Shown piece by piece: positions 1,538 to 9,758 of a stretch of 64,000 nt of DNA. Origin of the DNA: Curvularia clavata (Eukaryota); the NCBI GenBank assembly GCA_023920165.1, contig CP089275.1, positions 3,658,001-3,722,000 of the forward strand, in the 5' to 3' direction. The first letter of the stretch is position 1. The number at the start of each line of letters is the position of its first letter. The notes under the pieces are model-generated. The model was not told the origin of the DNA. It searched no databases and worked only from the letters and a program-made list of their open reading frames with translations. A program made the position numbers and the translations under genes.

Positions 1538-3008
1538 GGTTGCGTCGAGGGAGGTGGCTACGTACTCTCAGGGACGAACTTTCGGATAAGCCTGTCCTAC
1601 CACAACATTGCAGCCACCCACTCACCTTGACAAAATATGACTACGACCTCTGAAGCATATGAAATCGACTGCATTATCGGTTTTGAAGACTCTCAGTTAT
1701 TCATATCATTTATTTCATATTATGCAGATTATTTTGGTGATACTGACTATCAATCTATACCACTGTTGAAATTAGCTGTAATTGTCACGACTACTCACTG
1801 TATGCTATGTTCGTAGCACTTATGTATCCACTTTTAAAGGTTGTCGTAGTTGTCACATTTACTATTCAGTGTATTGACAGCGTATTTGAGCTCGATTTAA
1901 TTTTCCAATTTTATTGGTCGTGGAAGAATCAATTGAGCTGCTTTGGTAGCCCGGTTTTACCCCGGTACTACATCCATTCGTCGTGTAACAACTAGTAACA
2001 ACAAGCACTCTAAGCTTTGGAGAGCTACTTTGGATCGACTGGGCTGGCAGGTCAAATGTACCCGGATTCCAGGTAAACAAGTACTGGTACCATGGAGGTG
2101 GTTCTAGCTGTCACGCGGAGAGCCAATCAGTCTGCAGCTAACGGCTGCAACCCAAGAACATGCTCAATTCTGCTCAAACACCGTCTAGAATGTGCTCGTT
2201 TTACCGGTTCTAGCAGTGTCTTGGATTAAATTGAGAATCTTACAAAAACCCTCGTTGTGCCCGTTCCGTTCGAAAGGCACATTGCCGCTTCTTTGCTCGT
2301 TCACCTCACCTTGCCTCTACATCCCGCCCCCATTGTATGCCAAGCCTGAAGCATAGAGATTGTCTACATGTAAGCGACCTGCCTACCTCTGCGATAAGGT
2401 CGTCAGGCGCCCGTATGGTGTCAGTGCTTTCGCCTTACTTCTACACGAACAGCGTTGTTATGTTCGCCACCTCGTCCTTGGAAGGAAGGTGCTCGTAATC
2501 AGCGAGCACGGCTAATGGCTCCCAACGGCTTGCAATAACCCGCGTCTCCTCTGGCCCTTTGAAGACGTTGATTGCGAATGCCAACAACCTTCAGAAGTAA
2601 TTCCGCTGGCCTTGGCAGCTGCCTTATCAGGCTAAGCTTAGAACCTAGTCCGTCATTGGCAGCTGACCAGCATACCCGTTCATGCAGGCCTAACTCGTGG
2701 CCAAGCATGGAGTCCCTCGGCACCCAATGTGTCTGGCCTGGAAACCCTACTCCCAAGACCAGGCCAAGACTTGCCGAGTACATTGTTGCATACCGCAGCC
2801 ATATGGTTGCTTTTGCGTGCTGCTGGGATCACCATACTAATCTTCGGAGCATCTATGATAGGAAGGTCTCTGTATGGGTCGGGATGTAGGGTCCGACCAT
2901 CATGGCCATATGTCGTACGGAGCGGGGAAGGGTATATAATGAAGACCTCTTTGCTCCCATGTCGTACTTCATCCCAACTGCCCAAGTCAATCTACGGCCG
3001 TGTTCATC

Positions 3009-4834
3009 ATGAAGTGGGTTTCAATTTCCACGGCTTTGCTGCCCTTGGTCGCAGCCAGCGGCTATACTCGTGAAGAATATGCTAGCGGAGCTGTGATGGA
3101 GGCCATGATGGCTGGCAAGGAGGTGAGTCTGAGACAAATACATTGCCCTGTGATTGCGTACTGACAAGTCCAGGCTGCATGGGCGAAGGAGCGCGCTGCT
3201 GGCAACTACGACAGCAAGAAGTGGAGCGGCTTCGACAACAAGCGTCCCTCCAAGGGTGCTTTGAAATGCCAGAACGGACGAGTTGAAGCCGTGCCCGGTG
3301 ACGCTGATCAAACCTACCGCTGCAAGAATGTGGACATGTACGATTTCAAGACGCATGCCGAGCTCGGAGACGCAGTTGGAGAAGGCTCGGGCTCCTGGGG
3401 ATGGACTAGCAAATCGGGACGCGAATATGTGAGTAATTCTCTACATCCGTGTTCGGTGTTTGAGAGTGGTGATGGGCTCTGCGGCTCAGCCCTGAGGCTC
3501 ATGGACCCTGAGGCTCAACTCACGTCACGTGACACAACTACACCACCCCTACACCACCCCATAACTAAACCCCATAACTAAACCGCTCCATAACTAAAAA
3601 CCCCCCATAAACACACGACTCCAGTGCTGACATTTATTACAGATTGCTATTGGACAGACCTACGGTGCATCCTTCTCTGAGGTTACCAAGGAGGGTAAAC
3701 TCGAGTACCTGGGTCGTCTTCCGGCCCAAAACGACTCTGTCATCTGGCGTGAAATGAAGGTCGTCGGCGACAGTCTCATCATCGGATCAGAGGGCGTTGG
3801 ACATCACGTGCAAGGTAGGATTGATTGTCTGACTCTAAACTTGACCCAAGACCACTGCTCACACAAGTGCAGTATTTGATTTGAAGAAGCTGCTCAAGCT
3901 GTCGCCAAAGAAGCCATACACCTTTGACAAGGTCAAGGATGTGGCTTTGGTTGATATCAACCAAGGAATTAAGGGGCGAACACATACCGTCATCGGTAAC
4001 CAGGAAAAGAACTACGCCGTTGCTTGCGGAGCCGGTGGACGCCCTGGCCGCAACGACACATGCGCTGGCGGTCCTATGTGGATTAACCTAGACGATCCTA
4101 CAAAGCCTTATGTCGAAGGATGTAGTGGACAGGACGGGTACTGCCACGACCTCCAGTGCATTGTCTATAGGGGACCCCACAAGAAATACTACGGCCGCGA
4201 CATTTGCTACGGTTATAACGAGGACACTCTGACCATCTACGATGCCACAAACAAGAAGGGTATGGGAAATGCTGGTGCCATCATTTCGCGCACTCCCTAT
4301 GTCGGAGCCTCCTACACCCACCAAGGCTGGGTCACCGATCCCATGTGGCAAACACACATTGTCATGGACGATGAGCTTGATGAGGGCCAAATTGACCCCA
4401 ACCGCACTGCCGTTGACTCGCCCGCCAAGGACGGTTTTGCGGTTACCTACATTGTTGACATCCAGAACCTTGAAAAGCCATTCGTTAGCGGCCTCTACAA
4501 GACTACCACTCGTTCTGTCGACCACAATCAGTATGTCTACGAGGGATTGAGCTACCAATCCAACTACCAGGCCGGTTTGAGGATTTTGGACGTATCGTCC
4601 ATTCCCCGCTACCCTGATGGTTCCAAGGTCAAGGAGATTGCTTATTTCGACGTCTACCCAGGAGACGACGCCAAGCCCGGCGGTGGTGACGCTCTCTGGA
4701 ACGGCGGAACCTGGTCAGCCTATACCTTTGAATCGGGCTGGATCGTCATTAACACCATTGACCGTGGTGTTTTTGTGGTCAAGCAGAGTGATGTCAAGGG
4801 CCGCAAGAGGGGCAAGGGCCAGTTCTGGAAGTAG
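3009..4834 (+). CDS. Secreted choice-of-anchor-B / LVIVD-repeat beta-propeller-like protein, 4 exons
   Basis: Signal peptide MKWVSISTALLPLVAA; introns 3123-3173, 3429-3642, 3815-3872 give a continuous frame; motifs WGWT, IWREMKV, YTHQGW, DDELDE, HNQYV, SNYQAGLRILD. Confidence 0.8.
3483..3611. repeat. Patchwork of short tandem duplications inside intron 2
   Basis: CCCTGAGGCTCA x2, CTACACCACCCC x2, CCATAACTAAA x3, TCACGTCACGTGA. Confidence 0.8.
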
Positions 4835-5809
4835 AGCTGAACCAAAGCCAGGTTACGTGATATGTCATCAAATTTTAGCTATGAAATGATATTTCAGAAT
4901 ACCATAATATGTTTAAAAAACAACTTGAATATGATCAATTTTCCATCATTTGCTGTCACTGTCGGGGTGCCCAAAAGGGACAAGTGATTTTTACAAGACA
5001 CCAGGCTCCCAGAGACCTTACTGTCTCGTGTGTTGTGCGGATGTACTTGCATGGGGATACTACGTTAAGGTATTTGTCGGAAGTTTGTCAAGTTCTTTGT
5101 TTGCTAAAGTCAAAATTGTTGTCATCTTGGTCGGCCAGCCATGATGGCTCCATATGTTGGCCCAGGCTTAGAAGTGCGAGCCAGAGCAGTATACATAAGT
5201 GCAGCCGATATTTGGGGTTACTATAGATGGCTGATTAGGGCAATTATGAGAGAAGAAAAAATTCATCGCAGGCCTGTAGATACTCTGGGGCAAATACATG
5301 GCTCCACATTTCGAAGCATTCCCAGCTGCAGCCGCAACGGGGTCTGATTACGGCCTTGACGGCAATGTTGAACAGAATGTCTACTGAGATTGAACTGAGT
5401 GTCTGCCTACAGTGTAGCTTTGTTGTGTTAATCAGGCGACTGCACAATTACAGGGCTGGCTGCAATATGTTGGCCTGACCTATTGAGCGGGCTAATCAAT
5501 TGCCCGTGCAACCAACCCTGGTTCTCTGAAACTCTTAGTAACGCAGCCACTCCTAGAAAATACAATGGGGCATGATTTCGCTCTTTTCTAGCCGTTTGCA
5601 TTGTCTGATACTGGTGTCATTTTGCCCCATTATGCACATCACTAGTGTGGGTCCGCCCTGTTGCTCCTTCCCCTCACCGCTTCACCACGTGCTCTGTGAG
5701 AGCTCGAGCTGTCTAGCCAAATCACGTGTGACCAAGAGGACTAGCGTGGCTGCCTGCTATATCAAAGTCGCTGGCCGCCCACTCTTGTTTCTTCCAACAA
5801 ACACACAGC

Positions 5810-6177
5810 ATGCTTCAACAACCCCAGCATGGCTACTATGCCGCTGGTTACAAGTGGAATAGTTCACTTTACAACAATTCTAGCGTGGTAGGTACCTCAC
5901 ATCCCATTGACTTGAACAGAGAAGTAACTTATCTATAGCGCAAGAACAAGGGAGGCCGTGGAGGAAGAGTTGGTGCTGGTGGCACCGGTTACTAGCGGTA
6001 AGTATCCCATTCCCATTCCTAACCTCATTTTTGCATTGGTGCTTGCGTGTGCTAACAATACATAGTTGTGGTGGCGACCATTTACGCAACCGCTGCCCTG
6101 TGGCAGCTGCAGAGGTTTTAGCTGCGTACATCCAGCAGCCAGTCCAGCAGTCAGTCTAGCAACAGAAAGTTCAGTAA
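5810..6177 (+). pseudogene. Three-exon RGG + zinc-knuckle-like micro-gene with in-frame TAG stops
   Basis: TATA-like at 5757; ATG 5810; introns 5888-5938 (GTAGGT..TAG) and 5998-6065 (GTAAGT..GCTAAC..TAG); spliced read MLQQPQHGYYAAGYKWNSSLYNNSSVRKNKGGRGGRVGAGGTGY*RCGGDHLRNRCPVAAAEVLAAYIQQPVQQSV*QQKVQ*. Confidence 0.6.
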
Positions 6178-6641
6178 CTCTCCGGCCTGGCGCTTGCCTG
6201 GAAGGCGGAAAGGACATGAATGAGGGTGGGATAGTGGTCCATTGTTTGCTTGTGCATGCGTGCGTGTATGAGAGAGAGAGAGGGGGGAAAGAATGGGGGC
6301 GCAGTTTCCAGTTACAATGCTTCATAATAAAAGCACTTTACAATAACTGAATGCCTGGCAACTACAGCTATCCCAGTTACTCTAAAGTCGAACTCAATGA
6401 AAATTTTATAAGATCAACATGCGGATCGCCTATGCCAGTATTGAAATGGTAGACCATTGTAGCTTCAGCTGCATCTTACCGCCACAGAGCACTATTGTAT
6501 CTGCCTATAGTTATGGTACTGAGTCTCTCAGGTGTTAGCTTCCTGGAAGTAACGGGGTTAATAGAGTTTAATGTGAAAATTGGCCTCTACTGCCAAAGAG
6601 GTATCCTCATGTTCCTCCATGCGCCAACGTCCGTAGTTACA

Positions 6642-7372
6642 TGAATGGTGTTTGGTCTTTCTTGGTGTGGTTGGATTCTTGGATGGCTTCATGGAGCAAC
6701 TGAGAGTCATGGAGTATGGCGGTGGTGCCGCTGGCCAGTCCAAACGAGTGCATTCATCACTCAAAGGAAAAAGAACTAGGCATGGTTGTGTGACGCTGGC
6801 ACACGGCTGTTCAACGCAGTGGATATGAATTTACTGAAAGTGCCGTAATCTTGGAATTCGCAAAAGCATTCGAGATTAGTGCCTAGACTTTGTCGAGGTA
6901 AAGGCATTGACGTGTGAAACTTCAGCGGCTGAAGAATCTTATAATTTACTTGGCTTTGTAGACTACAACTATCTGCCTACAAACGGTCTGCAGCATTTTG
7001 AGGCTAATAGCCTCCGCCATAATCAGCTCCAGCCGATATTTGGTGCTACCATGGTTGACCAGGACGACGAAGACTTTGCTTTCGATCGTGACGAACTCAA
7101 TGACCCGCCTGCGAACGCCCTAGAATAGCTTGAGCATGATGAATTTCGTATCAAAGAGCAGTGGTTCGAGCTTGCTCATCATTTCTATACGCATATACTC
7201 TATCGCTTGGAATTGAGTTGTATAAGAAATGGTTGACCGCATCCAGGGAAATAAGGAAACTGCTAGGCGATTCAGGCCGATTAACGAACCACCGCCATGC
7301 TCCATGACTCTCAGTTGCTCCATGAAGCCATCCAAGAATCCAACCACACCAAGAAGAACCAAACACCATTCA
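6642..7372. repeat. 85-bp inverted repeat (6642-6726 / 7288-7372), 3 mismatches, 561-bp spacer
   Basis: Direct comparison of the arms; also visible as near-identical peptides in opposite-strand ORFs 6558-6764(-) and 7229-7426(+). Confidence 0.93.
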
Positions 7373-9195
7373 GATTTGAGATGGACGAGTTTCAATGCCA
7401 CAGTGGTATGGCACCGTTGCCATTAGAGAGGAAGACGAGGAAGACGTGAGGTGAGACGTTCAAGGGGCTCATTTTATTGGTGGTATTTCAATCGCGCGAT
7501 CTGATACCCAAATCATCAGCGCGATTGCACCATTACTGATTGAGTGTTTGTACCTTTTGCCTATGGCTGATAAAGTGTAGTCGAGAAGGATATAATAGCC
7601 TGTGACAAATTCGGATGTCTGAACTGAAGTGAATTCGACGACGAGTTGTCGTTGCAGTACGATCTTACCTATTCGGGCATGGCATACTAGCTTTAGAACC
7701 TGGAAGTACTATACATACTATTCAGTTGAAGCAACACGCACTCACCTTTGTATTACCTTGTTTTGATACCTCTCAGCTCAACATCCTAAGCGCAAGGCCA
7801 CTGCCCCATTTGCCACCCGCTCATCTGTTAGGCCTGCTCTTCACTAACTGCTACGCAACTTTCTGCGGTTTGACGCACCGCATTCACATTTTCACTCAGA
7901 CGAAGACCAATTTTAAAGCTGTGTCCATCTAACGCTTCTGGAATCTCCAAAGACAGCGCCTCTGATCTGGTGGCAACTTGTTTATTAAAACGTATATATT
8001 GACCCTCTGCAAGTCGAGGTCTATCGAATCTTTACGTGGGTTCTGCTTCAGAACAGCTGGGCATGCCATATCGCTGGCATTGAGACTTTGCCATCCAGAA
8101 CGATGGAACTAAGCGCCACAATAAAATAATTTTCTAAAGCTAGATCTATACCAAACCTGCGTTGTATCGCGTATTTTAGCCTTGAGCTATAATACTGGCT
8201 TGAGACTTCTGCCGAGAGCATCTTCATGCTGTATATCTGTAGTCTATGGTCCGAGGGCTGTGTGGGGGAAAACAGAATATCGCAGCTGGTTAATTATTGA
8301 CTAAACCTTAGGTCTTGCAAATACAACGCCTGCGGCAATACACTGGGGTGAAGCGGGTTGACACACCAAGGCATTGTAATGTAAACTGCTGTGTTGCATG
8401 CCAGCCACGTGTAATACATGGTCAAAATATGTATCCTTCTATTCAAGGGAGGCGCAGGAGAAAGTAAGATACTCGTTCAGCCCGTGTATACCGTATTGTA
8501 GAAGTATGTGGTCAGAGTGGGGATTTATGCGCGGGTTTCTTTCCGAGTAAATAGGCGCCTTCTTCATTGAAAACAATACTAGCGATTGTTCTTCAGATCA
8601 CTTCATGACTGCTTTATTGCGAGTCACCGCGTGATTATTTTGGCTCGATCTTGTATTTGCCACAAGACACGACTTTGATTCGACTCCTCACTAATCAGCC
8701 ATCTGGTCTCTTAGCTCTGTACTGATTAATCAACCTCCCCAGATGGTATATCATCGTGGACATAGTGAATCCCTGCATGCTGGGCTCTAGTTAGTTGCAC
8801 TTGACAGGTTTCACATTCCAGCAAGCAAACATTCCGTTTTAGAGTGTTGGATTTGATGGTTTGGTTCGCACTTCTCTCAACCTAACATCTACCCTTCAGA
8901 GCGCAACTGTTGCCCGTACTAGGGTGCATATGCGCTCGGGCCCTCGCTGACCTTGGCCTGAAGCCTGTATCGTCGACTATCCCATTGCTTGCAGATTCAA
9001 GTCTCTGCGGCTTGCTGGGTAGCATCCCATGAAGGGGCTCATTCACCGCTTCCAGATACCTCCATTCCTCGGTACGCCCGGCGCTGCGCGGTCTGGATGT
9101 TGATGGGACCACAGGACTCTCGACACATGTAGTATCCCATCGACAATCTGGCGCTATTCTGTCCCTTGAGGCTCTTTTTGTGCTCCTTTGTTCCT

Positions 9196-9758
9196 TCAAA
9201 CAGGCAGTACGGCGGTTATAAAGGCCTCCAAGCCCCGCTCAAACAGCTCGTTGGCAACACCAATGCCGCCCGGGTGCTCGACAGGAGCCAGCGGATTCTT
9301 GACCACATACTCGACATAGAGATTGGCCCAAATCTGGTGCAGGTACTGGCGCAGGTTGATCACCTTGGTGTCGGTAAGCATGACGAATTTCATGCGCGTC
9401 GGTGTCTCGTAGTAGTGGAGCTTGTACTCGCCGGTGCGATAGGAGAGGAAGGTATCGTCGGCACCTCCGAGCTTGGTGACAAAGTTGCGGAGCGAGAAGA
9501 CGAGACCAAAGACGAGCTTCTCATCGTCCGAATGCGACATGCCCTTGCGGACGGCGGCTACAACGTCACCATTGCTTGCAATTGAGTTGCCGGACGTGGG
9601 GCGTGGGGCGGTTTTGGACGAGGACGAGGTTGGACGGGCGGGAGTCCAGCGGCGCGAGTAGATGCATTCGGCTGCAGTTGTGGTCAGCGGCTGCAATGGT
9701 TGGGTTAAGATGGCGACTTACTGTGCCGATCGAATATGTAGAAGCTGTACAGCACCAT
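9196..9758 (-). CDS. BET5: TRAPP complex subunit Bet5/TRAPPC1 (sybindin-like), 2 exons
   Basis: MVLYSFYIFDRH + intron 9721-9672 + TECIYSRRW; KLVFGLVFSLRN, YKLHYYETPT, LYVEYVVKNP. Confidence 0.93.

Follow-up and report, generated by a model that had tools for sequence, protein, structure and literature searches.

The locus described here raises the question of why a small gene, spliced into a frame that encodes an RGG tract and a zinc knuckle, should carry a TAG codon inside that knuckle. The gene lies at 5810-6177 of a 64,000-nt stretch of DNA, called the window throughout, and it was missed by ORF-based annotation. The initial annotation, made from the letters of the window, had proposed two introns and a TAC-TAG where TGC-TGG is expected, and had explained the latter either by light RIP of a multicopy gene or by A-to-I editing of both As.

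Transcription, splicing and the encoded motif

Both introns are removed as predicted. In transcript contigs from two public runs, X13 and X17, joints placed at 5886>5938 and 5996>6065, with GT..AG ends, take out 51 and 68 nt, and a 37-kb contig of the DNA run X3 reads straight through both introns with no joint. X13 and X17 belong to one study (P11) with no tissue on record, and they are taken as RNA on the sole basis that their contigs join both introns, as the record carries no RNA label. The spliced contigs span 5604-6410 in X13 and 5811-6410 in X17, share the same 3′ end at 6410, and are assigned from the GT..AG polarity to the + strand, on which all features of the gene lie. Alternative splice sites (donor 5892, acceptor 5940) give no RGG/knuckle frame, and the choice is settled by the joints seen in RNA. 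The gene model is real: the locus is transcribed and precisely spliced, which bears out the two-intron micro-gene first proposed. A TATA-like word is also present at 5758-5765, but its putative role as a promoter fared less well, with the X13 contig beginning upstream of it at 5604.

The coding part of exon 1 (5810-5887) opens with an ATG at 5810 that is in frame with the RGG tract and the knuckle in the window allele. After intron 1 (5888-5938, GTAGGT..TAG), exon 2 (5939-5997) encodes a basic/RGG tract, including GGRGGR at 5951-5968, and the first two knuckle codons. The first of these, at 5990-5992, is TAC (Tyr) in the window and TGC (Cys) in X3, X13 and X17; the second is the premature TAG at 5993-5995, which occupies knuckle position x1, is preceded by 44 codons from ATG 5810 in the window allele and is followed by a C. 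Intron 2 (5998-6065, GTAAGT..GCTAAC..TAG) interrupts an Arg codon within the knuckle. The coding part of exon 3 (6066-6177) runs through C-G-G-D-H-x4-C-P (6067-6099), an Ala-rich stretch and a Gln/Pro repeat tail to a second TAG at 6157-6159 and a terminal TAA at 6175-6177, and the 3′ UTR occupies 6178-6410. The codons reported at the outset, TAC-TAG and the second TAG, are thus all present in the joined frame.

The combination of RGG tract and knuckle is unlikely to have arisen by chance. When the 688-nt spliced transcript, given G at 5991, was shuffled 20,000 times with its dinucleotides preserved (the motif was chosen post hoc), any C-x2-C-x3/4-H-x4-C occurred in 125 of the shuffles, and an RGG or GGR at most 25 residues before the knuckle in one; the unspliced window, read in six frames, holds no RGG + knuckle motif. 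Furthermore, a metagenome scan with the exon 3 pattern returned 45 loci, 30 of which carry the first Cys, a residue that the pattern does not demand. The motifs with this Cys form about 8 groups, as judged by eye, and take six different kinds of residue at x1. Judging from these sequences, we regard C-x2-C-G-G-D-H-x4-C-P as a natural motif. None of the 45 loci has DNA similarity to positions 3001-9500 of the window, and no orthologue is found among them. Pfam gave no match for the micro-gene, and the locus is not among the 94 matches to PF00098 (zf-CCHC) in the genome, a weak test because the motif is split by an intron and a stop in the searched sequence; the knuckle has x3 spacing, against the C-x2-C-x4-H-x4-C of PF00098. 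From its predicted product, the locus resembles a broken gene for an RGG/CCHC micro-protein for which RNA binding is predicted.

We found no second copy of the gene in the genome (32.4 Mb, 8 contigs), where DNA, protein and pattern searches returned self-matches only, although a DNA search may miss copies. The paralogs that the multicopy reading of the initial annotation calls for in this genome did not appear. Three other genomic motif matches, and two intronless matches with 1 mismatch, are unrelated to the micro-gene. Homologue searches covered protein sets, metagenomes and the gene's own genome. The N-terminal 63-residue read-through gave no candidate among proteins of 34-111 aa, and proteins of 71-2000 aa gave 6 candidates, none with E<=10; these negatives are weak because the queries were short. 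The sole exon 3 match in 1.84 billion representatives, P0001, is a repetitive protein whose alignment leaves out the Cys residues, and it was rejected. Rfam has no match for the transcript.

Alleles and the shared stop codon

Four versions of the locus were compared, namely the window, X3 (DNA), X13 and X17. Four of the 21 listed runs were placed on the window; the fourth, X15, reaches a depth of 2 and covers just 5686-5811 and 6065-6154, without bridging a joint. The small-share and 0.00-share runs X16 and X18-X21 stayed outside the comparison, as did X1 and X2, two near-complete DNA runs from which the assembly may have been built.

The TAG at 5993-5995 is common to all four versions. A5994 is kept in the contig consensus of X13 and X17, runs whose stage is unrecorded and whose contigs drop rare variants. 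Position 5991 is A in the window and G in X13, X17 and X3 (depth 118); since the G is found in a DNA run, Cys/Tyr is an allelic difference in the genome and gives no evidence of editing. The two-edit version of the editing proposal, with changes at both 5991 and 5994, is therefore unnecessary. Of the TGC-TGG expected in place of TAC-TAG, the first codon exists as the other allele at 5990-5992, whereas the second is TAG in every version. Position 5991 is the one letter by which the exon 2 pieces of X13 and of X17 differ from the window, and the X3 piece of 5300-6154 differs at five (5991, 6032, 6034, 6052 and 6061), with 4 substitutions in intron 2.

The remaining differences concern length. 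A T-run at 5868-5870 has one extra T in X3, X13 and X17, and the window sequence may contain an assembly slip at this point. In the extra-T alleles ATG 5810 leads just a 24-codon ORF, out of frame, and ATG 5829/5838 enters the RGG frame with 41 codons to the TAG; because of this 1-nt change, the first ~20 residues are wholly different between alleles. The same three versions have one more GGR (+9 nt) in exon 2. At 6142-6154 a repeat-bounded length polymorphism adds 45 nt in X13 and X17 and 57 nt in X3 (lengths taken from record coordinates), in frame and Pro-rich where displayed. In X3, X13 and X17, the TAG at x1 is the only break displayed between the start at ATG 5829 and the knuckle, and the window allele carries further lesions, with Tyr for the first Cys and the second TAG at 6157.

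On balance, we lean towards the view that the locus is a transcribed, single-copy orphan pseudogene in which an old nonsense codon was followed by decay specific to individual alleles. Its ancestor would have been a lineage-restricted gene for a small protein of RNA-binding type (about 80-100 aa) with an RGG tract, one CX2CX3HX4C knuckle and a Gln/Pro tail. The nonsense mutation at x1 would predate the divergence of the sampled alleles, with transcription and correct splicing, both seen in the contigs, persisting after it. Translation would normally end at the TAG, giving a 41-44 aa RGG peptide that lacks the knuckle. The alleles would have drifted since, the window presumably being the one to lose the first Cys, and the 1-nt frame change in exon 1 and the in-frame length changes would belong to the same drift. 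The gene would accordingly be a unitary pseudogene, damaged by ordinary mutation and not by RIP of a duplicate.

Several findings support decay. The TAG is shared, and A5994 persists in both RNA consensuses; the exon 1 frame and the first Cys differ between alleles; there is no paralogue, no protein homologue and no orthologue among the 45 metagenome matches; and transitions fall at CpA in 8 of 23 cases, where a RIPed transposon copy has 84 of 103. The host's place in the Pleosporales and the open frames of three genes whose stops are edited in Fusarium, both taken up below, count on the same side. Furthermore, the intergenic surroundings of the micro-gene, 4 kb in length (about 4850-9100), contain an 85-nt inverted duplication and decayed copies, at 70-77% identity, of three loci from elsewhere in the genome; a neighbourhood that changes this quickly is in keeping with a gene that is young or in decay. 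Against decay stand the precise splicing, the absence of exon 3 substitutions in X3 and X13 (0/85), the frame-keeping length variants and, in the other alleles, the position of the TAG at a tolerant residue, x1, as the sole displayed break before the knuckle. If decay is the explanation, this is an orphan gene caught mid-decay, which is of modest interest.

Apparent conservation beyond the stop and the surrounding region

Exon 3 (6066-6150) shows 0 substitutions in 85 positions in X3 and X13. The 3′ UTR has at least 19 in 233 nt in X13 (Fisher p=0.003 against exon 3), and intron 2 has 4 in 68 (p=0.04); once X17 is included (2/85 in exon 3), the contrast is not significant (p=0.12). The coding length variants, bar the 1-nt one, are all multiples of 3 (9, 45 and 57), and the UTR has several non-triplet indels, of 1, 2 and 13 nt; codon-based repeat slippage likewise favours multiples of three. 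As the few samples share most differences, they amount to about one allele contrast. X3 has no substitution over 5300-5887, which places the locus at the border between a near-identical and a ~8-13% diverged block, and because the region is mosaic, recombination and not selection may account for how little exon 3 diverges. The better conservation and the in-frame indels past the stop are, at the level of sequence, a hint that may point toward function.

A function could reside in the transcript, with the knuckle as a relic and the product being either a basic RGG micropeptide of 41-44 aa or the spliced RNA itself. Transcription and splicing in two runs are consistent with this, and in both allele types an ATG with A at -3 shares the frame of the RGG tract, which varies just by a whole GGR unit. 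Against it, the first ~20 residues of such a micropeptide differ completely between alleles, neither homologues nor an Rfam match were found in the searches above, and the folding of exon 3 does not surpass that of its shuffles (z 0.11). We consider this reading unlikely, if worth keeping in view.

The apparent conservation and the in-frame indels beyond the stop would also be expected under ribosomal read-through, in which a near-cognate tRNA would decode the UAG, any residue would fit at x1, and a little full RGG-knuckle protein would be made; the window allele, with Tyr for Cys, would then be null. The six residues found at x1 among the 30 of 45 metagenome motifs are in line with such tolerance, and a C at +4 of a stop favours leakiness. 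A strong read-through context, however, has a CARYYA-type motif downstream of the stop, and the context here is of another type; there is no stable structure 3′ of the stop, and the identical stretch at 5300-5887 in X3 again marks a mosaic in which recombination may explain the low divergence of exon 3. Read-through is in our view quite unlikely.

The surrounding stretch shows further features of its own. Between 6150 and 6600 the divergence from the other samples jumps, from ~1% or less on the left to 8-13% on the right, and the X3 contig departs from the window sequence at 6547; this may be a haplotype or insertion border. The 5′ end of a gene at G000:C2:2817166, with a putatively ATRIP/Rad26-like product, recurs at 7033-7134 as a decayed copy of 77% identity. 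An in-frame TAG is present in this copy too, C>T changes outnumber G>A changes by 9 to 1, and a 28-nt echo of the copy is found at 5202-5229. Coding sequence at G000:C4:981689 is matched at about 74% identity by both arms of an inverted repeat of 85 nt (6642-6726 and 7288-7395, 96% complementary, 561 nt apart), which indicates insertion of a gene fragment followed by local duplication. A third segment, 8508-8669, matches G000:C2:2430927-2431088 at 70%, a few kb from a knuckle match in an LTR element (C2:2435207). On the other side, 5302-5570 is the end of a 1619-nt X17 contig of depth 2126, probably an extended 3′ UTR belonging to the gene at 3845-4834, and this contig stops about 35 nt before the start of the X13 micro-gene contig. 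Separately, L083 (157-1793) and L086 (1240-2876) each carry a copy of a 1.6-kb element, 99.8% identical to one another and bounded by terminal inverted repeats of 60 nt; this is probably a DNA transposon that was active recently.

Editing, RIP and comparison with known systems

In the editing reading, sexual-stage A-to-I editing in pseudothecia would turn the shared UAG into UGG (Trp), as is the case for Fusarium and Neurospora genes with premature stops, and the adjacent UAC of the window allele could become UGC in the same way. If true, a small RGG-knuckle RNA-binding protein would be switched on during pseudothecium development, and restorative A-to-I mRNA editing in a Dothideomycete would make a third lineage after Sordariomycetes and Pezizomycetes; were the stop bypassed, the locus would serve as a specific test site for which fungal classes edit. 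The host is placed in the Pleosporales (Dothideomycetes) by one neighbour gene, a single-exon gene whose best named relatives are from Exserohilum (84%), Alternaria (82%) and other Pleosporales, with Sordariomycetes relatives at <=65%.

PMC11156358 lists Fusarium, Neurospora, Sordaria and Pyronema as fungi with sexual-stage editing, notes that none was found in Aspergillus nidulans or Botrytis, and calls the spread of mRNA editing over the Pezizomycotina classes open. Ame1 is reported to have gained its editing function in Sordariomycetes and, independently, in Pezizomycetes (10.1101/2023.10.18.562923). Pseudothecia-forming species were named as untested in 2020 (PMC7306014). Our search of main texts in mostly open-access literature found no report of editing in Dothideomycetes, and PMC13123824, PMC13431901, PMC10041177 and PMC1635273 added nothing on this point.

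Editing would be compatible with a stop that is a TAG, common to alleles about 8% apart in the UTR, and with the apparent constraint past it. Both As (5991 and 5994) have U at -1, which is true of every TAG and therefore carries no information for 5994. Furthermore, PMC10776026 describes 71 premature-stop genes in Fusarium that are often disordered and lineage-restricted and are also expressed, unedited, in hyphae; it mentions stops at such sites in single species of other classes. RIPed transposon copies are present in the lineage, so sex occurs or occurred there. Against editing, the X13 and X17 consensus is unedited at 5994 (with stage unrecorded and rare variants dropped by contigs), and the host is a Dothideomycete, outside the Sordariomycetes and Pezizomycetes. 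RID, SPO11 and a third CDC20-family gene that we assign as AMA1-like, that is 3 of 3 checked genes with edited stops in Fusarium, have open frames here, introns aside, with no in-frame TAG, a weak test because those stops arose within Sordariomycetes; the SPO11 stop is located just before the Toprim domain (PMC13251820). The 114 WD40 stretches hold 5 TAA, 1 TAG and 1 TGA, with no excess of TAG, and the stops inside them are probably mostly introns. In addition, the loop position of A5994 is unstable over three folding-window sizes, with an unpaired probability of 0.63-0.82 in the window allele and 0.06-0.91 with G5991. We consider editing of this stop very unlikely.

RIP is occasional in this genome, where some transposons have been hit by it. 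RID has an open frame, and 2 of 20 LTR stretches sampled from the top knuckle matches are RIPed and heavily mutated: L069 (G000:C5:10800-15300) has 103 transitions and 4 transversions, 84 of the 103 at CpA, and L081 (G000:C7:2586800-2591300) has 400 and 34. Both are single RIPed copies within near-identical LTR families, and the other 18 stretches are about 99-100% identical to their family mates. At the micro-gene, 23 of the 27 listed X3 differences outside the microsatellite are transitions. Eight of these (35%) fall at CpA, against a background of 90/265 C sites (34%), and 12 have AT in the window and 11 in the other allele; the count uses listed differences and leaves out 10 rows that fall within the microsatellite (6250-6289) or beside it and 3 absent from X3. 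The proposal of a lightly RIPed member of a duplicated gene, which the initial annotation had favoured, or of RIP leakage from a nearby repeat, could draw on the intact RID and the two RIPed stretches, on the three flagged changes, which would all be TpG>TpA or CpA>TpA, on an exon TpA/ApT of 1.86 (249 nt, noisy) and on the 85-nt, 96% inverted repeat that lies 470 nt downstream. With no duplicate turned up by DNA, protein or pattern search, allele differences that are bidirectional and show no CpA bias, a substrate index of 1.22-1.26 and GC of 49-53% that match the window, and neighbouring fragments rich in transversions, this reading is scarcely probable and appears largely refuted.

The decaying orphan gene that we favour can be set beside several known systems. 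Like the PSC genes of Fusarium graminearum (PUK1, AMD1, FgAMA1, FgRID1 and FgSPO11; PMC10776026 and PMC13251820), the locus has an in-frame TAG, is transcribed and spliced, encodes a low-complexity product and yields unedited transcript in at least some conditions. It differs from them in having a host outside Sordariomycetes and Pezizomycetes, an unedited RNA consensus, no sense-codon orthologue found and alleles that carry further lesions. We do not class it as an editing-restored gene because its host lies outside the fungal classes known to edit mRNA. With RIP-inactivated ascomycete duplicates the locus has in common a genome that holds the RIP machinery and RIPed transposon copies; it differs in having no duplicate and no one-way, CpA-biased transitions, and for want of these two features it is not classed with them.

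CCHC knuckles and RGG boxes occur together in proteins of the CNBP/Gis2/Byr3 type, and retroelement gag and LINE ORF1 contain knuckles as well. In the three LTR families sampled from this genome the knuckles have x4 spacing, unlike the x3 of the locus. The likeness to CNBP/Gis2/Byr3-type proteins lies in an RGG tract adjoining Cys-x2-Cys..His-x4-Cys, and the difference in a single knuckle of x3 spacing that is split by an intron and a stop.
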